A model generated the notes under the pieces. It was not told where the DNA came from, did no database searches, and saw only the letters and a program-made list of their open reading frames with translations. A stretch of 63,585 nucleotides of DNA, filler included. It is 6 parts of 6 records of this genome, joined end to end, with 100 filler letters (N's around TTAATTAATTAA, not from the genome) between each part and the next. Parts side by side here need not be neighbours in the genome. Positions count along the whole stretch, not along the records: positions 32,797 to 42,413 come from SRR20825010_2546; 5 more parts are not named here. One strand, written 5' to 3'. Numbering within the stretch: position 1 is the stretch's first letter; each line of letters begins with the position of its first letter. The translations under genes were made by a program, and so were the position numbers. Positions 6,836-59,593 of the stretch are shown piece by piece.

Positions 6836-6935
6836 NNNNNNNNNNNNNNNNNNNNNNNNNNNNNNNNNNNNNNNNNNNNTTAATTAATTAANNNNNNNNN
6901 NNNNNNNNNNNNNNNNNNNNNNNNNNNNNNNNNNN
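6836..6935. other. Artificial contig spacer
   Basis: 44 N + TTAATTAATTAA (stops in all six frames) + 44 N. Confidence 0.99.
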
Positions 6936-28065: not shown

Positions 28066-30525
28066 TTACCAGTCGTATTTTAATGTTGCTGCAATGGTCT
28101 GCCCCTCGTTCTGGTAGCAGTATCCGTTGTTGCAAATGTCGGCTTTGTTGTCGGCGAGGTTGGTGCCGTTGATGGCGAGTGTCAGGCCTTCAAGCTTGTC
28201 GCTGACCGCACCGAAGTCATATCGGATTGCGGCATCAAGCAGTGTGTAAGACTTGTTCTTGCTGGTGTTGGTATAGTTGGCATAGCTTGAGTCGATGTAG
28301 CGAACACCAACGCCAAGTCCGAAGCCACTCAGAGGTCCGCTCTGGAAAGTGTAATCCACCCAGGTCGATGCGGTTTTTTCCGGCGTTACGAGCGGCGTGT
28401 TGCCACGGTAGGAGCCTTTGACGATCTTGGCATTGTTATAGGCAAAGTTTGCAACAAGGCTCAGGCTTTCGGTCACATTTGCCTTGCCTTCGATTTCAAG
28501 CCCGCGTGATTCAAGTTTGCCGATAGGCTCATAATACGAACCAATTGTGGCACTGTAGCCTGCATAGCGGGCAACATTGTCCTCGGTCAGCCGATAGGCA
28601 GATACGGTGACTAAACTATCGAACCCGATTGGTTCGTATTTGACGCCAACTTCATATTGTTCACCTTCGGTCGGGGTGAGCATCTTGCCGTTGATATCCT
28701 GACTGGTGCTTGGCAGGAATGAAGTGCCCCAACTGACATAGGGCGATACACCGTTATCGAACGCGTAAAGTGCGCTGGCATTAAAAGTCGTTGCGGTGTT
28801 GTAGTCTGTTGAGCCGGTATTTGTCAGGCGGCTGATGCGCTTGCGCTCTGCATAGTCGAAACGAACGCCGCCATTGAAATGCCAGTTCCCGTATTCCAGC
28901 TGATCCTGAACATAGACGCCTGTCTGGTTATAAGTAACATCATCCAATGTCGTGTAGGCAGGCGTGCTGCCGGAAATTGATCTGTTTGGGTCATCAAGAT
29001 AGAAGCTGTAGTCGCTCAGCACCGCACTTGAACCAAATCGATAATCGGATTTCGAGTACATTAAATCCAGACCGGTCAGCAATTCATGAGAAACCTCTCC
29101 GGTTTCAAAGCTGGTAATTGCCTGATTGTCGACCTGTGCGCTCCAGAGCGTTTCCTGGACGGCCTGCGCCACGCGTCGATATTCGTTGGCGTCAGAAGGA
29201 TTCCAGCCAGCCCCGGCAACGCCCCCGGTGAGATAGCGGGCCGTGAGGTCAAAATAACCAAATCGGGTGTTTTGAGCCAGGGTGACCGGCACGGAGTTCA
29301 GATGGTGGGTGAGTTCATAGCCGACCTGAAACTGATCTTGCTTCTGATAGTCGTAATCTGCGTCACTGGTACGATAGTCAAGGACTTCGCCATTCAGGTT
29401 CAGCAATGTCGCAGATGCGTCCGTCTCGTCATGTTGTAAAAGGGTATAAACGGTCAGGTCCGTGTTCTCATTGGGTTGCCAGCGAATGGTTGGCGCGAAC
29501 ATCTGGCGATCATCCTGGATGTCATTGCTTGTTTCGCCATAACGCGCCATGCCGACAAATCGCGAAGCCCATTCGCCATTCTCGCTGATATCCAGATTAT
29601 AGTCGAAACCACCTTCATAGGATTCCGTGTCGGTGAAACGTCCATAGACGTTGTTTTTGGCATCTTTGTGCGGGCGTTTGGTGACGCTATTTAGCAAGCC
29701 GCCGGGTGTCGTCTGGCCATATAGTGCCGCCGTCGGGCCCTTCACGATCTCAAGCTGTTCAAGGCTGTAAGGTTCGGTTCTGAAGGTTGCGTAAACACCT
29801 GTCATCTGCCGTAGGCCGTCACGATAATCGCCATAGATATGAACCGGATAGCCACGGACATAGACCTGATCGAAGCGTGGATCATAGCCGTAATTATTGG
29901 TTGCGACACCTGCGGTATAGGCGACTGCATCCTCAATGCTGGCGACTGCGCGGTCTTCAATTTCCTGTTCGGTCACGACCGAGATGCTTTTGGCGGTTTC
30001 GATCAGGGGAGTGCTGGTTTTGGTTCCCGAACTGCTGGTTGTTGCGACGTAACCATGCGCCAGTTCGCTTGAGCTTTGTGCATTTGCTTCGACATAGACC
30101 GGATCAACAACAGTCGACGCATCCACATCGGAAGTTTCCATCTTTGACAGGGAAACAGTGCTCTCGCCCGTGAACCGATAGGTCATACCGCTACCCAGCA
30201 GCAGGACTTTAAGTGCATCAGAAGGCGTGTAACTGCCTTCCAGTTCCGAACTTTGCAAACCGTCGACACGGTCCAGATCGTAGAACAATTGCAAATTTGC
30301 CTGATCGGCAAAAGTCAACAGCGCCTGATTAAGGTCCTGTGACGGGATTGAAAATTCCATCGGTGTTGCACTGCTTACCGACGTATTGTCCTGTTGTGCT
30401 TTCGCCGTGGCTGGAACCCCCGTAACGATCAACCCGGCAGCAAGTGCAAACAAACTTGCACCACATATCAACTGATATGCCAAACCTTTTGCCAACCGGG
30501 CTTTGCCGGCTTTATTTACCTGCAT
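28066..30525 (-). CDS. TonB-dependent siderophore receptor/transducer with N-terminal signalling (STN) domain
   Basis: Signal peptide, FSIPSQDLNQAL STN domain, SGTKTSTPLIET plug, KGPTAALYG, C-terminal W. Confidence 0.93.
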   Translation of the reverse strand: MQVNKAGKARLAKGLAYQLICGASLFALAAGLIVTGVPATAKAQQDNTSVSSATPMEFSIPSQDLNQALLTFADQANLQLFYDLDRVDGLQSSELEGSYTPSDALKVLLLGSGMTYRFTGESTVSLSKMETSDVDASTVVDPVYVEANAQSSSELAHGYVATTSSSGTKTSTPLIETAKSISVVTEQEIEDRAVASIEDAVAYTAGVATNNYGYDPRFDQVYVRGYPVHIYGDYRDGLRQMTGVYATFRTEPYSLEQLEIVKGPTAALYGQTTPGGLLNSVTKRPHKDAKNNVYGRFTDTESYEGGFDYNLDISENGEWASRFVGMARYGETSNDIQDDRQMFAPTIRWQPNENTDLTVYTLLQHDETDASATLLNLNGEVLDYRTSDADYDYQKQDQFQVGYELTHHLNSVPVTLAQNTRFGYFDLTARYLTGGVAGAGWNPSDANEYRRVAQAVQETLWSAQVDNQAITSFETGEVSHELLTGLDLMYSKSDYRFGSSAVLSDYSFYLDDPNRSISGSTPAYTTLDDVTYNQTGVYVQDQLEYGNWHFNGGVRFDYAERKRISRLTNTGSTDYNTATTFNASALYAFDNGVSPYVSWGTSFLPSTSQDINGKMLTPTEGEQYEVGVKYEPIGFDSLVTVSAYRLTEDNVARYAGYSATIGSYYEPIGKLESRGLEIEGKANVTESLSLVANFAYNNAKIVKGSYRGNTPLVTPEKTASTWVDYTFQSGPLSGFGLGVGVRYIDSSYANYTNTSKNKSYTLLDAAIRYDFGAVSDKLEGLTLAINGTNLADNKADICNNGYCYQNEGQTIAATLKYDW

Positions 30526-30558
30526 TATGCAGACCCCCATCTTCGATATTTTCTTAAT

Positions 30559-30577
30559 AACGCAAATGATTTGCATT
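30559..30577. promoter_or_regulatory. Fur-box-like operator
   Basis: AACGCAAATGATTTGCATT with palindromic GCAAAT-n-ATTTGC core, between the class B promoter and the receptor start. Confidence 0.65.
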
Positions 30578-30590
30578 TGCTGATGCTAGG

Positions 30591-30621
30591 TGAGACGGGA
30601 TTTGCATTCTGATTCAGTAAG
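30591..30621 (-). promoter_or_regulatory. ECF sigma promoter, class B, for the receptor-fhuCDBF operon
   Basis: CTTACTGAA-N9-AAATCCCGTCTCA, repeated at 23341-23371. Confidence 0.75.
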
Positions 30622-30706
30622 ATAAATTTCTATTTTTTGTTTTTCTTCAGGAGGAAGGTCGGGAAATGGCCGAAATGCGGCTTTTCCGGAAGACTGGGCG
30701 TCCGAT

Positions 30707-31750
30707 TTAGTAAAGGAATGTCAGCAGCGGTGTGATGGAAACCTTGCGGATAGACAGCTCTGTCGCAATCAGGTCCAGCCCGACTTGTGGATCGCTCATG
30801 TCGAAAACACCACTTACACGCTTTCGTGCAACGGCTTCATTGGCGATCAGGATTTTTCCATGCTGATAGCGGGAAAACTCGGCAACCACTTCACGCAAGG
30901 CAACCCGGTCAAAGATCAGCTTGCCCTTTTGCCAACTCAGAACACGGTCCGAATTGACGGGATAGATATCTTCAAGTGAATATCGGCTGTATCTGACAGC
31001 CTCATTGGGGCTCAGAACGAGCGATTTTGTGGGGCGCGCGCCGTTTGTCAGGCTGACTTTCACGTTGTGTTGCAATACGGAGACCGACGCATAATCATCG
31101 AATTTGTCGATGACAAAACGGGTCCCTAAAGCGCGTGCTATACCGTCGCCGGTGGACACGACGAACGGACGATCACCGGCATTCTCCATCGGAACTGCCT
31201 GAAAGTCGACGAGGCCGGTAAAAATTTCGATCCGTCGTTCCTGTTCACTGAATTTGACGTCAATGGCGCTATCGGGGCCAAGTGTTATCTTGCTGCCATC
31301 GTCAAGGGTGATCGTCCTGATTTCGCCAGGTGCAGTATGATAATCTGCCCCCCAGACCAAAGCCGGATCACCCATCAGCACCCTGCCGGAAAACAGTGCG
31401 ATGAGCAGACAGGCAGCCAGGGCAATCGCGGCCCATTTTCCGATACCTGTGCGAGGCGGTTTTTTGCCTTTGCCTGTAATTACCGGAAATGGCCGGATTT
31501 CGGCGTTCTGCCTGTCTGCCTCATGCATAGAGCTTTGCGCCGCATTTACGCCGTCAGAAAACAGACTGGCATCCATCATCGCAAGTGCGTGATTGGCATC
31601 GGCAAATGCTTGCTGGTGGGAACGGGATTGTGCAAGCCAGGCATCAAGAGCTTTGTGTTCTGCATCATTCAGGCCGCCGTCAATCATCCGCGCAACCCAG
31701 TTGGCGGCACAAAGATCAATGCTTTCCTGCGTCTGTTGCGTTTGATTCAC
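30707..31750 (-). CDS. FecR-family anti-sigma/sensor
   Basis: AANWVAR...WLAQS N-domain, one TM, LDDGS, ALGTRF, WQKGKLIF, VSGVF. Confidence 0.92.
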   Translation of the reverse strand: MNQTQQTQESIDLCAANWVARMIDGGLNDAEHKALDAWLAQSRSHQQAFADANHALAMMDASLFSDGVNAAQSSMHEADRQNAEIRPFPVITGKGKKPPRTGIGKWAAIALAACLLIALFSGRVLMGDPALVWGADYHTAPGEIRTITLDDGSKITLGPDSAIDVKFSEQERRIEIFTGLVDFQAVPMENAGDRPFVVSTGDGIARALGTRFVIDKFDDYASVSVLQHNVKVSLTNGARPTKSLVLSPNEAVRYSRYSLEDIYPVNSDRVLSWQKGKLIFDRVALREVVAEFSRYQHGKILIANEAVARKRVSGVFDMSDPQVGLDLIATELSIRKVSITPLLTFLY

Positions 31751-31844
31751 GTTACTGATCCGCGCCCGAAAATCGCTGTTTCATTTGGTCCATAACTTTA
31801 GGACGTTCAAAGTACAAGAAAAGGCTAAAAAATTTTGCACCAGA

Positions 31845-32360
31845 TCACACGCCTTTCTTGCCCCGCCGTGCCATGACGTGGGCAATGGCACGGGCAATAT
31901 GCTTTTGGACCGAGCTGTCGGAGATACCAAGTCTCTCGGCAGCCTGATGATAGGTAAGCCCATCTACGCGCACCAGCACGAAGATATTGCGCGTCCTTTC
32001 GGGAAGTTCATCAAGGGCACGCCGCACGAAATCAAGTTCAGACTGATCGCCGACAATTTGTTCTGGCGAGGGGGCATTGTGAGGGATCGTTCCCAGATTG
32101 CTGTCATCAGCCCGATTCACCGGGTTACGCTTTTGTGCACGAACATGGTCCACGGCAAGATTGTGGGCAACCCGATACAGGTAGGAGCGTACATGCGTCA
32201 CATCATTCGATTTATTCTGCCGGGCGTGTTCGGTAACACGCAGGAATGTTTCCTGTGTCAAATCCACAGCAATATCAGCGTCGCGCAACAGGCGAGTGAG
32301 ATAAATCTGCAATTCCCTTTGATGGGAAAGGAATAGCGTTTTGATGTCGGTTATTGCCAA
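31845..32360 (-). CDS. FecI-family ECF sigma factor
   Basis: DLTQETFLR, YLYRVAHNLAVD, LPERTR...GLTYHQAAERLGIS; adjacent fecR. Confidence 0.92.
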   Translation of the reverse strand: MAITDIKTLFLSHQRELQIYLTRLLRDADIAVDLTQETFLRVTEHARQNKSNDVTHVRSYLYRVAHNLAVDHVRAQKRNPVNRADDSNLGTIPHNAPSPEQIVGDQSELDFVRRALDELPERTRNIFVLVRVDGLTYHQAAERLGISDSSVQKHIARAIAHVMARRGKKGV

Positions 32361-32696: not shown

Positions 32697-32796
32697 NNNN
32701 NNNNNNNNNNNNNNNNNNNNNNNNNNNNNNNNNNNNNNNNTTAATTAATTAANNNNNNNNNNNNNNNNNNNNNNNNNNNNNNNNNNNNNNNNNNNN
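32697..32796. other. Artificial contig spacer
   Basis: 44 N + TTAATTAATTAA + 44 N. Confidence 0.99.
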
Positions 32797-34305
32797 CCGC
32801 ACTACCCACACACCGAGCGCAAGGAAGAAACCAAAACCTGCAGCGATTGCCACTTGTCACGCGAGGATGACAACAATGCCATCATGGCCCAACTGCTGTT
32901 GCAAGGTACCAACTTCGTGAACTTCATCGGCTTCAATGCATGGCTGGGCGGCACGGAACACATTGCAGCAGTCACCGTGACGGAATGGGACGAACCCCAA
33001 ACCGTCTTGGGCAGTTACCTGCACAAGTACGCCTACCCCGATTATTACCAAAACCACTTGAACCGCGACCGTGAACTGGCTGACACCGTGGTGCCAGCCC
33101 TGATGGACCACACCACCAAAGGCGTGGCAAGTTGCATTCAACTTCGCGGCGAATACGTGTTTGTGGCCGAGGGCAAAGGTGGTTTCCGCGCCTACGATGC
33201 CGCCAGCGTGGCCAACAAGGGCTTCGGTCAGCGGGTTATTACCGCACCGTTTAGCCCGCTGGGCCAAGACACCCATGTGGCGACGAAAAACGCCACCTGC
33301 ATGGCTTTGCCCACCAACCAACCCATCAACCCCGAGAAAAACCAGGGCGACCTGATGCGCATTACCAATATGGAACAGCCCTTCCACCCCATTTACAACT
33401 ACGCCTTTGTCACCGACAGTGAAGAAGGCCTGATTGCAGTGAATGTGAACACCCTGGCCGATGGCGAGCCACGCAACAACTTCTTTGAACGCGCTGTGAC
33501 CTGGAATGAAAACGGTGTTTTGAATGGGGCAAGCCACATTACATTGGGTGGGCACTACGCCTACATCACCACGCCCAAAGGGCTGGTGTTTGTCGACATC
33601 AACAACCCCTTGAAGCCGCGCCACATCACCACCCTGCCCTTGCAGAATGCACGCGCCACAGCGGTGCAATTCCGCTACCTGTTTGCCACCACAGGCAAAG
33701 GGTTGGAAGTGATTGACATTACCCACCCGGAGAAGCCTGAACACACAGGCGCAGTGGTACCCATGGCGGATGCGCAACGCGTTTATCTGGCCCGCACCTA
33801 TGCCTATGTGGCTGCAAAAAAACAGGGCGTGGTGATTGTAGACATTGAGCGCCCACGCAAGCCCGTGGTGTATCAACAATTTACTGCTGACGGCCAACTG
33901 AATGACGCGCATGATGTGGTGGTGGGCTCCACCAACGCATCGCTGTTCGCGTATGTGGCCGACGGTGTAAATGGTTTGAAGGTGTTGCAATTAACATCGC
34001 CGGACACGCAGCCAAAGTTCTATGGCTTCTCGCCTGCGCCCATGCCTGAATTGATCGCCTGGCGCAAAACGCCAAGCCCGGCGTTGTCGGTGTCGAAAGG
34101 TTTGGATCGCGACCGTGCCGTGGATGAAACAGGCGGGCAGATTGCCGTGTTTGGTCGCATTGGATCGCGCCCATTCACCCGCAAGGAAATGGAAGCGTTT
34201 TACCTGCGCCCGGATGGCCGATTGTGGACAGTGACCGACAAGGTTGAAAAGGAAAACTACTTGCCCAAGCCCAAAGTGAATTCAGTGGCTTTCAGAAAGG
34301 ATTAA
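32797..34305 (+). CDS. LVIVD-repeat beta-propeller protein carrying c-type heme motif(s) (5' truncated)
   Basis: Frame open from the contig start: PHYPHT...KTCSDCH (CXXCH), then repeated YAYxA..GLxxxDIxxPxxP units. Confidence 0.85.
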   Translation, partial: PHYPHTERKEETKTCSDCHLSREDDNNAIMAQLLLQGTNFVNFIGFNAWLGGTEHIAAVTVTEWDEPQTVLGSYLHKYAYPDYYQNHLNRDRELADTVVPALMDHTTKGVASCIQLRGEYVFVAEGKGGFRAYDAASVANKGFGQRVITAPFSPLGQDTHVATKNATCMALPTNQPINPEKNQGDLMRITNMEQPFHPIYNYAFVTDSEEGLIAVNVNTLADGEPRNNFFERAVTWNENGVLNGASHITLGGHYAYITTPKGLVFVDINNPLKPRHITTLPLQNARATAVQFRYLFATTGKGLEVIDITHPEKPEHTGAVVPMADAQRVYLARTYAYVAAKKQGVVIVDIERPRKPVVYQQFTADGQLNDAHDVVVGSTNASLFAYVADGVNGLKVLQLTSPDTQPKFYGFSPAPMPELIAWRKTPSPALSVSKGLDRDRAVDETGGQIAVFGRIGSRPFTRKEMEAFYLRPDGRLWTVTDKVEKENYLPKPKVNSVAFRKD

Positions 34306-34308
34306 GCC

Positions 34309-35658
34309 ATGAAAGCAAATGCCTTGAACCGACTCTGCAACCGCGTATTGTTTAAGCTGTGCGTAACCTTGGTGCTGGCTGTGCCCACGGCCAGCATGGC
34401 GCAAACCATGCCGCACCAGTCACTCCACCAATCGGTGGGCACGGTGAACTGCGCCAGCAGTACCTGCCACGGCAGCATTGCTGAACGCACCGCCACGCCA
34501 GTTCTGCAAAACGAATACACCACTTGGCTGCGTGAAGACCCGCACACCCAAGCCTATGCCGTGTTGAAGAATTCACAATCGCAACGCATTGCGAAAAACC
34601 TGGGGCTTGCACAGCCTGCACATGAAGCCAAGGTTTGCCTGGATTGCCACAGTCACAATGTGCCTGCCAGCAAGCAAGGCCCACGCTTTGACAAAAGCGA
34701 TGGCATTAATTGCGAAGCCTGCCACGGCCCGGCCGAAAAATGGATTAAAACCCACGTAGAGCCCAAAGCCAGCCATGCGAAAAACATTGAAAATGGCCTG
34801 TACCCCACCAACGACCCCTATGCCGCAGCCAAACTGTGCACCAGCTGCCATGTGGGCGATTCAAGCCGCCCGATTACCCACCAAATTATGGGCGCAGGCC
34901 ACCCACGCATTTCCATTGAAGTTGAAACCTTCATGGCCTTGGAGCCCCCGCATTACAAAATTGACGAAGATTGGGTTCAGCGCAAAGGTGCCTACGATGC
35001 CGGGAAAATCTGGGCCATGGGTCAGTTTGCAAGCAGTGCCAATTTGCTGGAATTGATTGCCGACCCCAAGCGAAATCGCCAAGGCATCATGCCCGAACTG
35101 ATGATGTTCGACTGCCACGCCTGCCATTCACCGATGAGCAAAAAAGACTGGTCCAAAGACCTGGCCCGCAGCCCCGGGCAGGCCCGCATCAACAACTCCA
35201 GCCTCATCATGGTTCAGGCTATTGTTCGCGCCGCTGCACCACAACACAGCAGCGATATCGCCAAACTGGTGAACCAATTGCACATTGCAAGCACCTCGCC
35301 AGCAGCCAATATGAACGAAGTTGAACGCGCAGCAAATGTACTGCACGCGCAACTGAACACGGTGCGCAAAGTGGTGGCCACGGTGCCATTCAATGAACGG
35401 GTACTGGAGAAAATCCTGAAAGACCTGGTGAACATGGCGGCTGGAAACCAGTACGCGGATTTTGCTGGTGCCGAACAAGCCTACATGTCGATCAGCAGTG
35501 TGGCCAACGGTTTGGCCCGCAAAGGAAATTCACGCATTGCGCAAACCGTGAATTCGAAAATGGACCGTTTACTGAAATTGCTCAGCAACGATGAAGCTTA
35601 TGACCGCGAAGCATTTCAATCCGAACTGCTGGCTTTGAAAGCCGCGGTGGGAGGTTAA
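34309..35658 (+). CDS. Periplasmic multiheme cytochrome c (c554-like) with helical C-terminal extension
   Basis: Signal peptide; CASSTCH (CX4CH), CLDCH, CEACH, CTSCH, CHACH. Confidence 0.9.
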   Translation: MKANALNRLCNRVLFKLCVTLVLAVPTASMAQTMPHQSLHQSVGTVNCASSTCHGSIAERTATPVLQNEYTTWLREDPHTQAYAVLKNSQSQRIAKNLGLAQPAHEAKVCLDCHSHNVPASKQGPRFDKSDGINCEACHGPAEKWIKTHVEPKASHAKNIENGLYPTNDPYAAAKLCTSCHVGDSSRPITHQIMGAGHPRISIEVETFMALEPPHYKIDEDWVQRKGAYDAGKIWAMGQFASSANLLELIADPKRNRQGIMPELMMFDCHACHSPMSKKDWSKDLARSPGQARINNSSLIMVQAIVRAAAPQHSSDIAKLVNQLHIASTSPAANMNEVERAANVLHAQLNTVRKVVATVPFNERVLEKILKDLVNMAAGNQYADFAGAEQAYMSISSVANGLARKGNSRIAQTVNSKMDRLLKLLSNDEAYDREAFQSELLALKAAVGG

Positions 35659-35661
35659 ACC

Positions 35662-38124
35662 ATGCAAGAAAATATCAAACCCATGTTCGCCGATGTACCG
35701 GCTGAACTTGACATTGCCATCGTGGGCTCCGGCCCCGCGGGCTTGTCTGCTGCCTCACGCGCACAAACACTTGGATGCAACTATGTGTTGTTCGAGGGTG
35801 AAAACCATGCCTCTGACACCATTTACAAGTACCAGAAGGGCAAGCATGTCATGGCCGAACCCGGCTTCCTGCCTTTGCGCAGCGGCATGCCATTTGAAGC
35901 AGGCAAGCGCGAACACATTCTGGGTACCTGGGACAAACAGCTGGCTGATCAGCGCGTCAACATTCAATACAAAAAGAAAGTGGCCACCATCAAGAAGCTG
36001 AACGATGGTGCCGGGCCTTTCGAACTGGAATGTGAAGACGGCAGCAAAACCACCGCACGCACGGTCATTCTAGGCATCGGCCTGCAGGGTAATATTCGGA
36101 AAATTGGCACCGATGGCGACGATCTGCCCAATGTGCAATACACACTGAGCGACCCCGATGAATTTCAAAATGAAACCATCATCGTGATTGGCGCAGGCGA
36201 TGCAGCAATTGAAAACGCCTTGGGCTTGATGCGCAAAAACAAGGTGTTTCTGGTGAACCGTCGCGAAGAATTTGCGCGCTGCAAGGAAGGCAATTTGAGC
36301 CAGATCCTGGCGGCCGACACCAATGAAGATGTGAAAATTTTGTACAACACCAGCACCCTTCGCATCGAAGAAATTGCAGATGCAAAGGACGGTGAACCTT
36401 GCATGAACTACGTGTTCAAAGGCCCTGAAGGTGAACAAACCATACCTGTACACCGAATTATTGCGCGCTTGGGAGCCACCCCACCCCGCACGTTGGTGGA
36501 AAGTTTTGGTGTGCAGTTTCCAAACAGCGACCCCAGCGCTGTGCCTGCCTTGTCTGAAAGTTATGAATCGAATGTGCCGGGTTTGTTCATTGTAGGTGCC
36601 TTGGGCGGCTACCCGCTGATTAAACAGGCCATGAACCAGGGCTACGAGGTAGTGGACACCATCATGGGCTTGCCCGTGGTACCTGCAGATGAGCCGCTGC
36701 TGGCGACCAAGTTCAAGCCGCTGGGTGATCGAAGTGTGTCGGAAGTGCTCGATTTGATTTTGAACAACGTACCGATTTTCTCGGGCATTACCAAGTTGCA
36801 GCTGCGCGAATTCATGCTGGAATCCGATTTGCTCAAACTTTCCAAAGGGCAAATCGTTTTCAGAAAAAATGATTACACCAGCACTTTCTTTTCCATCGTG
36901 GAAGGTTCAGTTGATATTGACCTGGTGGGCAAAGATGGCAAACCCATGGTCATCAACCTGAGCAAAGGCAACTACTTTGGTGAAATGGGCTTGATCAGTG
37001 GCAGACGCAGAACCGCCACCATTCGTGCAGGCGAAGGTTGCGTGCTGGTTGAAACACCCCGCAAAGCCATGCTGAAGCTGATTGCATCGGTTGAAAGTGT
37101 ACGCAAAACCATTGATGAAACGTTTGTACGCCGGGCCATTTCAACCTACCTGGCACCACCTTTGGACAACGCCGCCATTGATGAACTGCTGAGTGATGGC
37201 ATTGATGTACGCCGCTATGCCAAGGGCGAGGTCCTGTTCAAAGATGGCGACGCCGCCGATGGTTTGTATTTGATTCGCCGTGGATCTGTAACGATCTCGA
37301 AAATGATCAAGGAAAAAGACGTAGTGTTGTCGTATGTATCAGCGGGCAACTACGTGGGTGAAATGGCCTTGCTGAACAACAATCCACGTTCAGCCACGGT
37401 AACCGCCTCGGTGTTCACAGAAGCCCTTGTGCTGCCTGTTGCGCCCGTGCAGCGCGTGCTGGCGGCCAATCCCGACTGGAAGGCTGTGTTGCAGGCTCAA
37501 GCCAGCAAGCGGGTAAAAAACAATGTGTTCCGTGAAGACGAGGCCTTCCGTGACACTGACCTGATCCGCTTTCTGATGAACGAGGGCTTGGGCGAAGCAA
37601 CCGATGCGCTGATCATCGATGAAAGCCTGTGCGTGCAATGTGACAACTGCGAAACTGCGTGTGCAGACACCCACGGTGGCACATCCCGCCTGGACCGAAG
37701 TGCCGGCCCTACTTTCCAGAACATTCACATCCCCACATCGTGCCGCCATTGCGAACACCCGCACTGCATGAAAGACTGTCCACCGGATGCCATTCGACGC
37801 AATGAAAGCGGTGAAGTGATGATTGCAGATTCCTGCATTGGCTGCGGCAACTGCGAGCGCAATTGCCCCTATGGCGTTATTCAAATGGCAGTGAAAGCGC
37901 CACCCAAAAAAGGAAATATGCTGACATGGCTGTTATTTGGCCTGGGCGACAAACCCGGCGAGCGCGAAGCCGCTTACGACCCCAATGCCATCAAGAAAGC
38001 AGTGAAATGTGACATGTGTGCCGGCAGCAGTGGTGGCCCAGCCTGCGTACGCGCCTGCCCCACGGGTGCAGCCATTCGAATTTCACCCGAAAAGTACCTG
38101 GTCAGGCAAAGCGAATTGAGTTGA
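35662..38124 (+). CDS. Fusion: FAD/NADPH oxidoreductase (TrxB/YpdA-like) + 2 cNMP-binding domains + 4x[4Fe-4S] ferredoxin
   Basis: GSGPAG, GAGDAA, NRR; FGEMGL..RTAT and VGEMAL..RSAT; CVQCDNCETAC, CRHCEHPHCMKDCP, CIGCGNCERNCP, CDMC..CVRACP. Confidence 0.92.
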   Translation: MQENIKPMFADVPAELDIAIVGSGPAGLSAASRAQTLGCNYVLFEGENHASDTIYKYQKGKHVMAEPGFLPLRSGMPFEAGKREHILGTWDKQLADQRVNIQYKKKVATIKKLNDGAGPFELECEDGSKTTARTVILGIGLQGNIRKIGTDGDDLPNVQYTLSDPDEFQNETIIVIGAGDAAIENALGLMRKNKVFLVNRREEFARCKEGNLSQILAADTNEDVKILYNTSTLRIEEIADAKDGEPCMNYVFKGPEGEQTIPVHRIIARLGATPPRTLVESFGVQFPNSDPSAVPALSESYESNVPGLFIVGALGGYPLIKQAMNQGYEVVDTIMGLPVVPADEPLLATKFKPLGDRSVSEVLDLILNNVPIFSGITKLQLREFMLESDLLKLSKGQIVFRKNDYTSTFFSIVEGSVDIDLVGKDGKPMVINLSKGNYFGEMGLISGRRRTATIRAGEGCVLVETPRKAMLKLIASVESVRKTIDETFVRRAISTYLAPPLDNAAIDELLSDGIDVRRYAKGEVLFKDGDAADGLYLIRRGSVTISKMIKEKDVVLSYVSAGNYVGEMALLNNNPRSATVTASVFTEALVLPVAPVQRVLAANPDWKAVLQAQASKRVKNNVFREDEAFRDTDLIRFLMNEGLGEATDALIIDESLCVQCDNCETACADTHGGTSRLDRSAGPTFQNIHIPTSCRHCEHPHCMKDCPPDAIRRNESGEVMIADSCIGCGNCERNCPYGVIQMAVKAPPKKGNMLTWLLFGLGDKPGEREAAYDPNAIKKAVKCDMCAGSSGGPACVRACPTGAAIRISPEKYLVRQSELS

Positions 38125-40389
38125 TTACTTCGTGTCGAACTGCGTCACGCCATCCCAAGTTTCGGGTGGAGGATTTGCCTGAAAATAGTCGATCCGGCTT
38201 TCATACAGCGCACGCAAAGTCGGGTTCACAACTTCATTGGTTTCCAGACTGTTCAAAGCCGCTTTGGCATCAGCCCACTGCTGTGCACGAAACGCATTCA
38301 ACATCGCGTGCCATTTTCCAGCGCACTCAAAAGTGCTTTCAGCCAACGCGTTGCGCTCGCCCAAGGGTGCGTAAATCGACACTGGTTCGTTCTTGCCTTT
38401 CACCTTCACGGCATCCAGCTCTTGAAACAACATGCCAGACACCGCCATTTTGGTATGAGGTCCTACAATCACGCCAACGCCGTAGGTTTTTGTAATGCCT
38501 TCAAGCCGCGAACCCAGGTTCACCGCATCACCCATGACCGTGTACGCACGGCGAATTTTCGAACCCATGTCACCCACGCGCATTTGACCCGTGTTAACAC
38601 CGACACCGATCGCCAGTTTGGGCCAGTCGCGGGCCATAAACTTTGCATTCAGGCGCACGGCTTCTTCCTGCATGGCAATGGCCGCCTTGGTTGCCAGTTC
38701 AGCATGTTCCGCATCGGCAATGGGTGCCCCCCAAAACGCCATAATGGCGTCGCCGATGTATTTGTCCAAAGTACCGCGGTGTTCGCGAATAATTTCAGAC
38801 ATCACCGTGAGGTATTCATTGATGTATTCGCGCAGTTCGTTGGGCTGCAGCGTTTCAGAAATGGTGGTGAACCCGCGAACATCCGAGAACAGCACGGTAA
38901 GTTCCCTGCTTTCCCCTTCCATGGAATAGCGCTTTGGGTCAAGCGCCATTTCGGTCACCAGTTCTGGTGCCACGTACTCGCCAAACAGGTTCACCATCTG
39001 CTTTTTACTTCGCGATTCCGCAAGGTAACCATAAGCCACATCGAACACAACAATGGCCAACACCAGCAGCAACACCACTGCCACAGGCAGCACCACCCCT
39101 GCCTGAAAATACAGCAGCGAATTGATGGCGACGCTGGCCACCAAAATACCCAATGCCACCAGCAACGACCAAATCGCGCTGAGAATGGGCATCATCACGC
39201 TGAGCACCACACCTACAACCAACACAGAGATGAACAGAAGCCCCTGGGAATATTCCGGGCGCAACTTGTAAACACTGTCCAACATACCGCTGATCACATT
39301 GGCATGCACTTCAACGCCAGGATAAGCCGGGTTCACAGGTGTGCTTCGCAAATCAAGCAAACCGGGGGCAGTGGTGCCAATCAACACAATACGGCCTTCA
39401 ATGTCTTCAGGTTTCAGTGCACCGGCCAGCACATCCGCAGCGGAAACATACCGATATCCGCCACCCTTTGGCCCCCCCTTGGCCCTGAAATTTACACGGG
39501 TCAACAGACCGCGCTCAACAGGAATATCCAATTCAACGTCTGGCGAACGCAAGGCGATCATCTCAACCGCACCGTAATCATCGTCGACACCTTCCGGAAA
39601 CACCGGAATAACCTGCGGATTGCCCAAAGCACGCCGAAGGGTACCCAGCGCAAAGCTTTGGTAGTAAGCATCGTTGAATTGGGCCAGCAAAGGAATGGAG
39701 CGCACAGTACCGTCTTCATCAACCATGGGGTTGAAATATCCGCCATCTGCATGGCGTTGCAACACAGGTATATTGCCGCCGTAGCCTTGCCAATTGGTGC
39801 TGTCCAATTGAAGTGTGCCAAGTTGGCTTTTCTTGAAAATGGCAGGTGGCAACGCCCCCGACAAGGCCGTTGAATCCTGATTCAGGTAATAACCCAACAC
39901 CACGGGGCGTTCTGCCAATACTTTCGCCAATTGGGCATCGCGGTCAAATTGCCGGGCAATTTCGGCTTTCAGACCTTGCAATTCACTTTTCAGGCCGGGC
40001 TTGCTTTGAACAATCGAGTCAAAGGCCTGCAGGGCATCGCTTTGCTGGGGCTCTGCAAACACAATATCGAAACCCACTGCGGCTGCGCCCAGTTTGTCGG
40101 TCAACTCGACAATCAGCTTTGCAACCACATCGCGAGACCAAGGCCAGCGCCCTACTTCAGCAAGACTTTTCTCATCAATGTCGACAATGACAATTCGGGG
40201 ATCCATTTCGGGCTTCTGTGCCTCTGCGCGCAAGCGCACGTCATACACCAGATAATCCAGGCGCTTGACTACATCCGATGGCACAAAACCCAACACGTGC
40301 AACAAGGCAATCGCGGTGAAAGAGAACCCCACTCCAATTCGGAATGCCTTGCCAGCCACGCGTCTCCACGACTTGAACAATATCCTCAT
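38125..40389 (-). CDS. CHASE2-domain class III adenylyl cyclase
   Basis: IVDIDEKSL..GRWPWSR CHASE2, PGVEVHA, three TMs, FSDVRGFT, DKYIGDAIM, YTVMGDAVNLGSRLE. Confidence 0.95.
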   Translation of the reverse strand: MRILFKSWRRVAGKAFRIGVGFSFTAIALLHVLGFVPSDVVKRLDYLVYDVRLRAEAQKPEMDPRIVIVDIDEKSLAEVGRWPWSRDVVAKLIVELTDKLGAAAVGFDIVFAEPQQSDALQAFDSIVQSKPGLKSELQGLKAEIARQFDRDAQLAKVLAERPVVLGYYLNQDSTALSGALPPAIFKKSQLGTLQLDSTNWQGYGGNIPVLQRHADGGYFNPMVDEDGTVRSIPLLAQFNDAYYQSFALGTLRRALGNPQVIPVFPEGVDDDYGAVEMIALRSPDVELDIPVERGLLTRVNFRAKGGPKGGGYRYVSAADVLAGALKPEDIEGRIVLIGTTAPGLLDLRSTPVNPAYPGVEVHANVISGMLDSVYKLRPEYSQGLLFISVLVVGVVLSVMMPILSAIWSLLVALGILVASVAINSLLYFQAGVVLPVAVVLLLVLAIVVFDVAYGYLAESRSKKQMVNLFGEYVAPELVTEMALDPKRYSMEGESRELTVLFSDVRGFTTISETLQPNELREYINEYLTVMSEIIREHRGTLDKYIGDAIMAFWGAPIADAEHAELATKAAIAMQEEAVRLNAKFMARDWPKLAIGVGVNTGQMRVGDMGSKIRRAYTVMGDAVNLGSRLEGITKTYGVGVIVGPHTKMAVSGMLFQELDAVKVKGKNEPVSIYAPLGERNALAESTFECAGKWHAMLNAFRAQQWADAKAALNSLETNEVVNPTLRALYESRIDYFQANPPPETWDGVTQFDTK

Positions 40390-40405
40390 GCCAGATCAGT
40401 TCTCA

Positions 40406-41878
40406 TCATGGTGCACATTGGGGCGCCGCAAACGGTGGCGATGCCAGTGTGTTGTCTTTAACAATGACGTCAGGTGGTGAGGTCAGCAATTGGGGCGGCA
40501 AGTTGCTCAGCGTTTGTACAAAAGCACCCTCCCCCCTATTCACCTCAAGCGGATCCTGATTGGAATTGGAGATAACAATGACACCGTCATTCACAGCCAC
40601 AAACAGCTGCGAATTTTCATCAGAACCACCATCTTGTTGAAGCGACTGCACTGGCGTTGACGACAATGTTTCAAAGTTGGCCGGTGTGTTTTCAGGCAAA
40701 GGCCCAGAGTTGGGTACATTTCCCAGCACATTCGGCAGCGAATTAAGCACCTGAATATTCACGCTGCCAGCAGGAATAATCGCAGACTGCCCAGCGTTGA
40801 TAATAGAATTCACTCCGCCAGATGTCACGATCAGTTGCCCGTTTCGCAACTCAACCGTCAGGTTTGACGAACCAGAACACACCACCAAACTGCCTGCTTG
40901 GGATGTACACGACACATCCAATGCGGTTCCCCGAATACCCACAGTGGCAGTTTCAGTGAAAAACTTCACGTTGTTCGGTTCTGCCTTTGCGATGGCACCA
41001 GTGACCGCCCGCACAGCACCTTTGAGCAACTTGAACGAAGCCACTGATGTTTGTGGCGAGGCAGATGCATAGCGATAAGCAGCCACCTGCATACTGCTGC
41101 CGCCGGGCAAGGTTAATCGGGTGGAATCAGCCATGCTGAGTACCGCAAAACCACTTTCAGCCACTTCAACAGTGTCACCGGCAAACACAGCCGAACCCTT
41201 TTGCAAGGATCGGCGTTTCCCCTCCGGGGAAATGGAAAAAGTTTCACCAGTCAGCTGGGAAACGCGCCCGGCAACGTCGGCATTGGATGTGTTGGTAACA
41301 GTGGCTTTGTCAGACTCGCCTTTGGCCAAACGCGTACATTCATCACCTTTGCACAAACGCGCAGTGAAGTCGGTACCCCGAATACCAATGGTGGCGGTTT
41401 CACTTTTCAGTGAAAATGCATCGGCGCTGCCACGCTTGCCGATCAGACCTGTCAAAGTGCGCAATCCGCCCTTGACGAGCTTGAACTCGGCCTTGTCCGC
41501 AATGGGTTGCTCTGGTTGATACTCGTAATTCTCAACCACGAAGCGTGTATTGGGGCGCAAAGCCACTTGCGTGGTGTCGACAAATTCCAGCACGGTTGTG
41601 CTTTTGGCCTGGGTGTTGATGATGTCGCCGACATTCAGCTTGGTGCCTGCCCCGGCGAATTTGTTTTTTCCATCGGCGGTTTGCAGGTTCACCAATCCTG
41701 TGACCACCTTGATCATTCCCACGGAAGGTTTGCCAGATTGGTCAGCTGCTTGAGCCACATTCGGCATCAGGTCTTTGGCTTGAACGTTCTGCGCCACTAC
41801 CGGGCTACACACCCCCAACGAAAGCGCCATCAACGACACGCTGAACAATGAGCGAATACCAAGGATTGAGTTGTACAT
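40406..41878 (-). CDS. Exported protein with tandem FecR-like domains
   Basis: Signal peptide; two repeats ending TATIGIRGTDF and TATVGIRGTAL; no sigma-binding N-domain; start could also be 41899. Confidence 0.82.
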   Translation of the reverse strand: MYNSILGIRSLFSVSLMALSLGVCSPVVAQNVQAKDLMPNVAQAADQSGKPSVGMIKVVTGLVNLQTADGKNKFAGAGTKLNVGDIINTQAKSTTVLEFVDTTQVALRPNTRFVVENYEYQPEQPIADKAEFKLVKGGLRTLTGLIGKRGSADAFSLKSETATIGIRGTDFTARLCKGDECTRLAKGESDKATVTNTSNADVAGRVSQLTGETFSISPEGKRRSLQKGSAVFAGDTVEVAESGFAVLSMADSTRLTLPGGSSMQVAAYRYASASPQTSVASFKLLKGAVRAVTGAIAKAEPNNVKFFTETATVGIRGTALDVSCTSQAGSLVVCSGSSNLTVELRNGQLIVTSGGVNSIINAGQSAIIPAGSVNIQVLNSLPNVLGNVPNSGPLPENTPANFETLSSTPVQSLQQDGGSDENSQLFVAVNDGVIVISNSNQDPLEVNRGEGAFVQTLSNLPPQLLTSPPDVIVKDNTLASPPFAAPQCAP

Positions 41879-41889
41879 GTCGGCGGCCC

Positions 41890-42411
41890 TCATTTGCACA
41901 CCGCCGAAGCGCGTTGGGGATCACTTTGCGTGCTTTGAAGCTCAATGTCACCGGACTGCTGGGAAACAGTAGTGCCTGCTGTACTTTGGTTGGCCGCTTC
42001 CACTGCCTGCTCTTCCTCGGTGGATGTTGTGGTGCTTGAACTGGTGGTGCTGGATGACTGCGTAGTGGTTGTGCTGGTTGGGGTAGTGAATGCCTGGTCC
42101 AGGTTCTGGTTGATCGTTGAGGTGCTGGTGGTACCCGTGCTGCCCGTTGCGATGGTGCCGGAACTGGCCTGCGCAATGGTGCTGGTGCTCAACTGCTGAA
42201 TTGAGCCCAAGGTGTTGACCACCGGATCCGTAAACGAATACCCCAAACCTGTGTTCAGTTTGGACACACTGCCAAAAACGCCATTGATGGAACTGGCTTC
42301 CAGGAAGGCATATTGATTGCCGCTGCCCAGATTGCCGCCAGAAATATCGATCAAATTCAATTGACCCGCCAGGTTGGCAATGCCATTGACAACAATGCAG
42401 TCAAAATCAAC
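41890..42411 (-). CDS. C-terminal fragment of a filamentous-haemagglutinin/passenger-like surface protein
   Basis: Open frame from the contig edge (VDFDCIVVNGIANLAGQL), Gly/Asn beta-helix-like segment, Ser/Thr-rich linker, ends SAVCK. Confidence 0.6.
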   Translation of the reverse strand, partial: VDFDCIVVNGIANLAGQLNLIDISGGNLGSGNQYAFLEASSINGVFGSVSKLNTGLGYSFTDPVVNTLGSIQQLSTSTIAQASSGTIATGSTGTTSTSTINQNLDQAFTTPTSTTTTQSSSTTSSSTTTSTEEEQAVEAANQSTAGTTVSQQSGDIELQSTQSDPQRASAVCK

Positions 42412-42413
42412 AC

Positions 42414-42513
42414 NNNNNNNNNNNNNNNNNNNNNNNNNNNNNNNNNNNNNNNNNNNNTTAATTAATTAANNNNNNNNNNNNNNNNNNNNNNNNNNNNNNN
42501 NNNNNNNNNNNNN
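42414..42513. other. Artificial contig spacer
   Basis: 44 N + TTAATTAATTAA + 44 N. Confidence 0.99.
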
Positions 42514-42514
42514 G

Positions 42515-43129
<615 letters not shown>

Positions 43130-55903: not shown

Positions 55904-56003
55904 NNNNNNNNNNNNNNNNNNNNNNNNNNNNNNNNNNNNNNNNNNNNTTAATTAATTAANNNNNNNNNNNNNNNNNNNNNNNNNNNNNNNNNNNNNNNNN
56001 NNN
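55904..56003. other. Artificial contig spacer
   Basis: 44 N + TTAATTAATTAA + 44 N. Confidence 0.99.
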
Positions 56004-59493: not shown

Positions 59494-59593
59494 NNNNNNN
59501 NNNNNNNNNNNNNNNNNNNNNNNNNNNNNNNNNNNNNTTAATTAATTAANNNNNNNNNNNNNNNNNNNNNNNNNNNNNNNNNNNNNNNNNNNN
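59494..59593. other. Artificial contig spacer
   Basis: 44 N + TTAATTAATTAA + 44 N. Confidence 0.99.

Follow-up and report, generated by a model that had tools for sequence, protein, structure and literature searches.

A flavoprotein with tandem cyclic-nucleotide-binding domains and a four-cluster Fe-S domain, encoded with a multihaem envelope system and convergent with a CHASE2 cyclase

Modules of the flavoprotein

The window analysed here is a stretch of DNA of 63,585 nucleotides (nt) in which six contig pieces are chained, and the piece at 32797-42413 carries, on the plus strand at 35662..38124, the gene of an 820-residue protein that joins a flavin domain, two cyclic nucleotide monophosphate (cNMP)-binding domains and a domain with motifs for four [4Fe-4S] clusters. 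The reading frame (820 codons, 35662-38124) has an ATG start with GGAGG 8 nt upstream and begins 3 nt after the stop of a tetrahaem cytochrome c gene. An original prediction, made from the letters of the sequence, had proposed a four-module flavoprotein at this position, and this architecture was borne out: Pfam matches were found for Pyr_redox_3/2 at residues 17-327, for cNMP_binding in two stretches and for Fer4 families at 650-805. The predicted lack of a signal peptide also held, as no signal or TAT motif is present and a Rossmann strand begins at residue 16, and the protein is predicted to be cytoplasmic. Public sources name it only as a ‘cyclic nucleotide-binding domain-containing protein’. 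A family alignment of 44 members (32-83% identity) served for structure prediction with AlphaFold2, and secondary structure was assigned by DSSP; the model has a mean pLDDT of 86.8 and a pTM of 0.76. Searching the PDB with Foldseek returned analogues for the flavin domain alone, namely Bdr/YpdA and ferredoxin-NADP reductases (FNRs) of the thioredoxin reductase (TrxR) type, with TMq ≤0.33, so the arrangement as a whole has no solved structure.

The flavin domain (residues 16-335; 35707..36666, plus strand) has the TrxR fold and motifs for FAD and NAD(P)H. Both dinucleotide motifs that had been read in it were confirmed, as GSGPAG (22-27) and GAGDAAIENA (177-186), and the flavin motif is invariant across the alignment. 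The basic NRR motif, of the NADPH type, is likewise found as N199-R200-R201...R206, with NRREEFAR aligned to HRRDEFRA of Campylobacter jejuni TrxR (3r9u). The CxxC of thioredoxin reductases is absent, as had been claimed, since CATC of 3r9u aligns with YTLS and none of the 44 members (0/44) has a Cys within columns 152-169, the site of the TrxR disulfide. The domain had been placed with YpdA or FNR and not with thioredoxin reductase; the FNR type and the exclusion of thioredoxin reductase were upheld, whereas membership of YpdA was not. TrxB (TIGR01292) was rejected at 73.9 bits against a cut-off of 343.45 and for want of the redox CxxC, and YpdA/Bdr (TIGR04018) at 102.7 bits against 339.9. 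In the alignment with 7a7b, GGGPCGL faces GSGPAGL, and the YpdA Cys, which we take to be the catalytic Cys14 of the GPCGL motif, is replaced by Ala26; among the 44 members this position is Ala in 34, Gly in seven and Ser in three. The TrxR fold, the FAD and NAD(P)H motifs and the missing CxxC are all features of TrxR-type FNRs (6gar, 3ab1, 3lzw; Foldseek probability 1.00). Enzymes of that type have a C-terminal extension with an aromatic residue that stacks on the flavin; here the chain runs on beyond residue 335 into the cNMP module.

cNMP domain A with its C-helix covers about residues 375-497 (36784..37152, plus strand) and domain B about residues 503-602 (37168..37467, plus strand), the match to cNMP_binding (PF00027) reaching 136.1 bits against a cut-off of 27.5. 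Both phosphate-binding cassettes keep the pattern GE..8..R[TS]A that had been noticed, as G440-E441...R450-T-A in domain A and G566-E567...R576-S-A in domain B, and 14 of 14 closer relatives retain Glu and Arg in each of the two. In one genome (G375) the two residues are found in both cassettes by alignment, though the regular expression GE.{7,9}R[STA] scored 0. The tandem aligns with the A-B tandem of PKG and of PKA regulatory subunits (E 1e-23 to Plasmodium PKG). A helix of 37 residues (604-640; 37471..37581, plus strand), predicted by AlphaFold2 and DSSP, connects domain B directly with the Fe-S domain.

The Fe-S domain (residues 646-807; 37597..38082, plus strand) is a four-cluster ferredoxin domain resembling HycB and HydN. 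Its sixteen Cys lie in four motifs (657-667, 694-706, 725-735 and 783-799), as had been counted, and are invariant in 44/44 members. The label DmsB/NrfC that had been attached to it fell, because the nearest proteins are soluble wires of the HycB/HydN type: HycB (7z0s_B, E 1e-17) aligns with the domain end to end, with the four Cys motifs in HycB order. DmsB (TIGR02951) reached 52.5 bits against 214.1 and NrfC (TIGR03149) 41 against 377.6, and the protein is predicted to be cytoplasmic with no signal peptide. All equivalog cut-offs of NCBIfam were missed by far, including those of HydN (56.2 against 260) and AegA (71.9 against 1003), so that the likeness to HycB/HydN is one of domain and not of family membership. 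Between cluster motifs 3 and 4 lies the conserved hydrophobic motif MLTWLLFGLG (residues 753-762; 37918..37947, plus strand), predicted by AlphaFold2 as a short helix inside a loop of lower confidence and present with the consensus LLxWLLFGxG in about 30 of the 44 members. It had been described as a hydrophobic insert; its hydrophobic character is indeed special and conserved, but the HycB loop at that place is equally long.

Some relatives depart from this plan. One representative of 1212 residues (P0128) has long repetitive insertions within both cNMP domains, and in two representative clusters (P0131, P0135) FHA domains are fused to the N-terminus of the flavoprotein. FHA domains are a recurrent feature of the cytoplasmic side in the multihaem system described below; in Alcanivorax (L071 13241-14923) one is fused to the N-terminus of its membrane-anchored decahaem. 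At one locus (L006) a gene for a Ser/Thr kinase is found 3.4 kb downstream, and the system may receive a second input through phospho-threonine signalling. In a soil metatranscriptome (X18), near-identical contigs fall inside the flavoprotein gene (35700-35968, 36805-37213 and 37204-37385) and inside the neighbouring LVIVD gene, which is at most a weak hint of expression, given that DNA carry-over is possible; the missing cover over the cyclase gene in the same data is uninformative.

The multihaem system and its membrane protein

A genome scan recovered at least 586 stretches encoding relatives, and the best 80 loci (52-95% identity, nearly full length) were kept, companions being sought by local tblastn with the complete operon genes of Limnobacter humi; the counts out of 80 given below all refer to these best 80. 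A 50%-identity library contained 840 clusters at E 1e-30 or better, and the flavoprotein is not rare: it is a widespread uncharacterised subunit. At 74 of the 80 loci it is accompanied by at least one further gene of one multihaem system, and the six loci devoid of companions are each flanked by little sequence on one side or both. The system comprises seven genes. One encodes a membrane protein with five transmembrane segments (5-TM) that carries WX3HX13H twice and SGXXG once. The others encode a decahaem anchored in the membrane, a lipoprotein in which two domains are HbpS-like, a secreted protein (577-754 residues), a protein of about 1300 residues in which a decahaem part is joined to an LVIVD propeller, a tetrahaem and the flavoprotein itself. 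Three gene orders were seen, with one gene set retained. In the first, the flavoprotein comes last, straight after the tetrahaem (27/80 loci, this window included); in the second it comes first, with the membrane protein immediately downstream (47/80); in the third the genes form two convergent operons (G366, G036, G144).

The piece that carries the flavoprotein gene holds the last three genes of the system. The first of these, at 32797..34305 (plus strand), is the 3' part of the decahaem-LVIVD beta-propeller gene, of which 502 codons and one haem motif (TCSDCH) are left, the 5' part being cut by the contig start; full-length relatives have 1250-1307 residues and 10 CXXCH. The second, at 34309..35658 (plus strand), encodes a periplasmic tetrahaem cytochrome c of 449 residues with a signal peptide, four CXXCH and one CX4CH (CASSTCH) near its N-terminus, the last being a possible fifth haem site. 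In Limnobacter humi (L085 1-7389), opposite-strand genes ahead of the operon resemble a cytochrome c maturation (ccm) cluster, as judged by topology and by sequence starts only. A lead to LVIVD proteins from a Tenderiales preprint was dropped, since it concerns an unrelated LVIVD protein.

Three kinds of evidence tie the flavoprotein to the 5-TM membrane protein and make the latter the likely acceptor of its Fe-S wire. Firstly, there is the gene order, with the membrane protein directly downstream in 47/80 loci. Secondly, the whole flavoprotein is fused to the membrane protein in a metagenome protein of 1110 residues (P0124), and the same fusion occurs as single open reading frames (ORFs) of 1118-1135 residues in three genomes of one genus (G046, G186, G022). 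About a dozen residues separate the domain of the last cluster motif from the first membrane helix in these fusions, and so short a linker would place the Fe-S domain at the cytoplasmic face. Thirdly, a flavin-less form of 440-480 residues exists, consisting of the two cNMP domains and the Fe-S domain, and in one genome (G005) its gene and those of the same membrane protein and of a small tetrahaem make up a module of three. A phylum-wide search with this short form returned mostly unrelated tandem-cNMP proteins of about 405 residues, with about 14 rows belonging to the family, and no frequency was drawn from it. Together, the three kinds of evidence suggest that the sensor-plus-wire unit and the haem-b protein are the constant core, to which the flavin domain is an added input. 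It had also been proposed that the hydrophobic element might dock the protein to the membrane or a partner; plausibly it does dock on a partner, for which the downstream position and the fusions point to the 5-TM membrane protein.

The convergent cyclase and the remainder of the window

Tail to tail with the flavoprotein gene, at 0 nt spacing, lies the minus-strand gene of a CHASE2-containing class III cyclase of 754 residues (38125..40389). Aligned to CyaB (3r5g) and Cya2 (2w01), it has the catalytic stretches FSDVRGFT, GTLDKYIGD and YTVMGDAVNLGSRLE, with Lys in GTLDKYIGD where the guanylate cyclase Cya2 has Glu, and Thr in YTVMGD. The residues concerned are presumably the metal-binding Asp pair, Lys with Asp/Thr for adenine, and Asn with Arg for the transition state, and from the sequence this neighbour (38125-40389) is classed as an adenylate-type class III cyclase with all catalytic positions present. 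The adjacency itself is sound: in a public run, one independent DNA contig (66.5 kb) spans the entire piece 32797-42413, with 52 differences, and the junction 38124/38125 is also bridged by a second independent assembly. No promoter- or terminator-like site was found at this convergent junction, which says little.

The association of the cyclase with the system recurs. It adjoins the flavoprotein gene in 4/4 Limnobacter-type loci, and Limnobacter humi encodes two class III cyclases and five cNMP-domain proteins. A class III cyclase is present in 15/15 genomes with the flavoprotein, no class I cyclase was found in the 13 genomes tested, and in nine of the 15 a cyclase lies within 26 kb of the flavoprotein on the same contig. 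The linked cyclase is the sole one of its genome in G144, G324 and G036; we estimate the chance of a lone cyclase in a 3-Mb genome lying that close at about 1-2%. Linked cyclases are of the CHASE2 type in these three, in G366 and G375, and also at locus L050. They head the tetrahaem-to-LVIVD operon in G366, G036 and G144 and lie between the two halves of the system in G375; overall, at least four different arrangements place a CHASE2 cyclase within the system or next to it. In the genome with the flavin-less short form (G005), a second copy of the flavoprotein gene has a class III cyclase with a FIST domain 4 kb away (L109, G005:C34, 3469-6744).

On the cyclase side, the gene directly upstream (40406..41899, minus strand) encodes a secreted FecR-domain protein of 497 residues, and its start overlaps the end of a large two-partner-secretion (TPS) exoprotein gene. 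The latter is represented by its 3' end (41890..42413, minus strand), which is truncated where the contig ends, forms part of the operon on the cyclase side and is 89% identical to L001. Its Limnobacter humi homologue has 1778 residues and a TPS domain, with a ShlB-type gene ahead. The minus-strand string (40406-42413; L004 14715-22448) reads ShlB-type transporter, 1778-residue TPS-domain exoprotein, FecR-domain protein and cyclase, and the secreted filamentous protein may belong to the sensing side of the cyclase.

The six pieces of the window are joined by spacers of the form N44-TTAATTAATTAA-N44 at 6836-6935, 32697-32796, 42414-42513, 55904-56003 and 59494-59593, and since the window is a chain of contigs, gene neighbourhoods are not readable across these points. 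A minus-strand trio at 28066-32360 encodes a FecI-like extracytoplasmic function (ECF) sigma factor, an anti-sigma factor of the FecR kind and a siderophore receptor that is TonB-dependent and bears an STN signalling domain. It is an ordinary iron-signalling trio on a different piece from the flavoprotein gene. The neighbourhood implied by the first reading is partly an artefact, and the trio was dropped from the context of the flavoprotein because a contig junction intervenes, so that these are no true neighbours. At the start of the piece that follows 42413, a 195-codon ORF (42542-43129) bears a by-eye resemblance to the C-terminal part of the F1 ATP synthase beta subunit.

Proposed electron flow, possible cyclic-nucleotide control and known systems

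The reading that we lean towards, with a confidence a little above even, is that the flavoprotein is a cytoplasmic input subunit which feeds electrons from NAD(P)H into the membrane haem-b protein of the seven-gene envelope system, and that this input is conditional on cyclic AMP (cAMP). NAD(P)H, probably NADPH, would reduce FAD on the TrxR-fold domain, which, having lost the disulfide, would act like a TrxR-type FNR. Electrons would then traverse the four [4Fe-4S] clusters of the HycB-like domain, seated at the cytoplasmic face of the 5-TM, ferric-reductase-like protein with two b haems, and this protein would pass them across the membrane to the anchored decahaem and then to the tetrahaem and the decahaem-LVIVD protein. 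The PKA-R/PKG-like tandem, whose last helix is predicted to continue into the Fe-S domain, would make the transfer conditional on a cyclic nucleotide, and in Limnobacter the ligand would most likely be cAMP from the tail-to-tail CHASE2 receptor cyclase. Ligand binding in known cNMP domains shifts the C-helix, and TrxR-fold enzymes operate by large domain rotation. It had been proposed that cNMP binding could reposition flavin and clusters; with helix 604-640 ending at the Fe-S domain, these motions make it plausible that a ligand sets the position of the wire with respect to the flavin or the membrane protein. The case for control by a cyclic nucleotide is strengthened by the CHASE2 adenylate-type cyclase, which is encoded against the gene here and occurs again with the system elsewhere. 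The most specific form of this proposal, in which cAMP made by the CHASE2 receptor for a surface signal binds directly to the tandem sensor and opens or closes the transmembrane wire as a ‘second-messenger-gated electron valve’, is offered tentatively, as a possibility that we would rate somewhat below even.

Several observations count against this interpretation. The cassettes are not uniformly kept: Glu and Arg are found in both in 24 of the 44 family members and in neither in 11, and the strict pattern GE..R[ST] occurs in both in 12/44 and in neither in 15/44. Control by cNMP therefore cannot be essential to the core function. R201 of the NADPH-type motif varies, being Arg in 10/44. A cyclase within 10 kb was found in only five of the 80 loci, the link at L050 is loose because a glutamate dehydrogenase (gdh) gene intervenes, and in six of the 15 genomes the contig of the flavoprotein has no cyclase. 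In addition, the linked genomes are partly kin, five of them forming one family, so that the counts overstate independence and about four or five independent lineages, rather than nine, should be reckoned. The first four operon genes, including that of the membrane protein, lie off the piece 32797-42413 and are supplied from relatives whose flavoprotein is 83-95% identical. Finally, literature searches gave no biochemical or experimental work on this family or architecture.

Some of these observations also speak for an alternative that we consider unlikely: that the two cNMP-like domains serve as structural spacers or for dimerisation or bind another ligand, that neither cAMP nor cGMP controls electron transfer, and that the cyclase works through other effectors. 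It would account for the 11 representatives that keep Glu and Arg in neither cassette and for the 75 loci of 80 with no nearby cyclase, and Limnobacter humi has four other cNMP-domain proteins as possible cyclase targets. Nevertheless, the cassettes are canonical in the protein of this window and the two residues are kept in both cassettes by every one of the closer relatives; CHASE2 cyclases recur in several arrangements and include the sole cyclase of three genomes; and the two cNMP domains stay with the Fe-S domain even where the flavin domain is missing.

Inward flow is the main rival to outward flow. The same complex would run in reverse, with cNMP gating, so that external electrons, for example from Fe(II), would pass through the periplasmic cytochromes, the haem-b protein and the Fe-S wire to reduce NAD(P)+. 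We regard this as quite unlikely. TrxR-type FNRs are reversible, which speaks for it. He et al. (PMC5566968) proposed inward flow for PCC3/PCC4 in iron oxidisers, but the model ends at the quinone pool and not at NAD(P)+. Here such a route would be doubly uphill: electrons would leave the positive side of the membrane for the negative one and would climb from haem c potentials to those of [4Fe-4S] clusters and NAD(P)+, and the operon encodes no energy-coupling subunit. Outward flow would be favoured by the membrane potential and the redox ladder.

It is very improbable that the flavoprotein is a signalling protein that senses and reports the state of the cytochrome chain through redox and cNMP rather than conducting electrons. 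Fe-S clusters and flavins do act as sensors in other proteins and some members (P0131, P0135) have N-terminal FHA domains, but no output domain in the form of a DNA-binding, kinase or cyclase module was found by Pfam, the four-cluster chain is wire-like and the fusion to a two-haem membrane protein fits conduction. A soluble YpdA- or TrxB-like disulfide reductase for thioredoxin or low-molecular-weight thiols, unlinked to cytochromes, is scarcely credible: YpdA and TrxR are the best NCBIfam and PDB sequence matches of the N-terminal domain, but with scores far under the cut-offs (102.7 against 339.9; 73.9 against 343.45), no CxxC, Ala26 for the YpdA Cys and a gene embedded in a cytochrome operon at 74 of the 80 loci.

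The multihaem system occurs in hundreds of proteobacterial species. If cAMP does gate the flavoprotein, envelope sensing would be tied directly to electron flow, which would represent a cNMP effector of a new class and a novel mode of control for electron export to the envelope. It would also give an experimental handle on the multihaem system, through addition of cAMP or mutation of the two arginines, for which Limnobacter is a good test case, having intact cassettes and few cyclases in the genome, one of them encoded against the gene.

Cyclic-nucleotide effectors known to us are transcription factors, kinases, channels, exchange factors and a few enzymes, and our literature searches found no oxidoreductase or electron wire described as one. 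PKA regulatory subunits and PKG share the tandem A-B arrangement with the protein described here, and these and CRP share its canonical phosphate-binding cassettes; unlike all of them, its output is an oxidoreductase on the same chain. TrxR-type FNRs (6gar, 3ab1, 3lzw) and Bdr/YpdA (7a7b) have the same two-Rossmann TrxR fold, free of CxxC and with a basic NADPH-type motif (TMt 0.63-0.77, identity about 19-21%). Here, by contrast, the flavin domain shares one chain with its presumed Fe-S acceptor, two sensor domains lying between them, and, unlike Bdr/YpdA, it has no YpdA Cys. The four-cluster ferredoxin modules of HycB, HydN and the AegA N-terminus have the same four-motif order and equal loop length between motifs 3 and 4. 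They differ in that the loop here bears the conserved hydrophobic LLxWLLFGxG, and that the partner is a haem-b membrane protein rather than a hydrogenase or formate dehydrogenase.

NOX enzymes, ferric reductases and Fre-MsrQ export electrons across membranes by a path that the proposed one would share, from NAD(P)H through flavin to two stacked b haems. What sets the present system apart is that a four-cluster wire and two cNMP sensors are interposed and that the acceptor is a chain of multihaem cytochromes. The analogy with NOX and ferric reductases was drawn also by He et al. (PMC5566968). Their PCC4 subgroup II (He et al. 2017, PMC5566968) has an Fe-S gene (pfam13247) upstream of a 5-TM inner-membrane protein with two WX3HX13H and SGXXG, the same motifs as in the partner here, and in one genome the two genes are annotated as a single gene. 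Neither cNMP nor flavin domains are mentioned for the PCC4 Fe-S gene in the accessible part of that paper, where inward flow to quinone is proposed.

The ptdABCDEFG cluster (bioRxiv 10.1101/2023.11.21.568154), studied in silico only and with its function stated as completely unknown, likewise unites, as PtdE, PtdF and PtdG, an Fe-S protein that binds cNMP, a membrane protein like ferric reductases and a decahaem, with a tetrahaem in the same cluster. Features of the PtdE/PCC4 type were found in the relatives surveyed here, with cNMP domains, Fe-S clusters, the 2xHX13H membrane protein and multihaem cytochromes alongside. Compared by description, however, PtdE has ‘two 4Fe-4S clusters’ and no flavin domain, in contrast to the four cluster motifs and fused TrxR-fold domain here, and the cluster lists PtdC, an FAD/NAD(P) oxidoreductase in its own right, for which the present system has no separate counterpart. 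Where ptd has the pentahaem PtdA and the porin PtdB, the system here has the HbpS-like lipoprotein and the decahaem-LVIVD propeller, and its flavoprotein gene is last in the operon, whereas PtdE adjoins the membrane protein.

The cyclase side also has counterparts. A CHASE2 cyclase paired with a FecR-domain protein, as at 38125-41899, has been described in a Campylobacterota cluster (PMC9239204) and in CyaD1/CyaD2/CyaK of Sinorhizobium meliloti (PMC5498481). In contrast to those systems, as far as their accessible descriptions go, no phosphodiesterase or TPR gene was seen on the piece 32797-42413, and the pair here abuts the 3' end of the gene of a cNMP-binding redox protein. The closest published descriptions of the redox side, the ptd cluster and PCC4 subgroup II, are both purely genomic, and three features were not found described in the available parts of these papers: the fused TrxR-fold domain, the flavoprotein-last order with decahaem-LVIVD and HbpS-like proteins, and the tail-to-tail CHASE2 cyclase.

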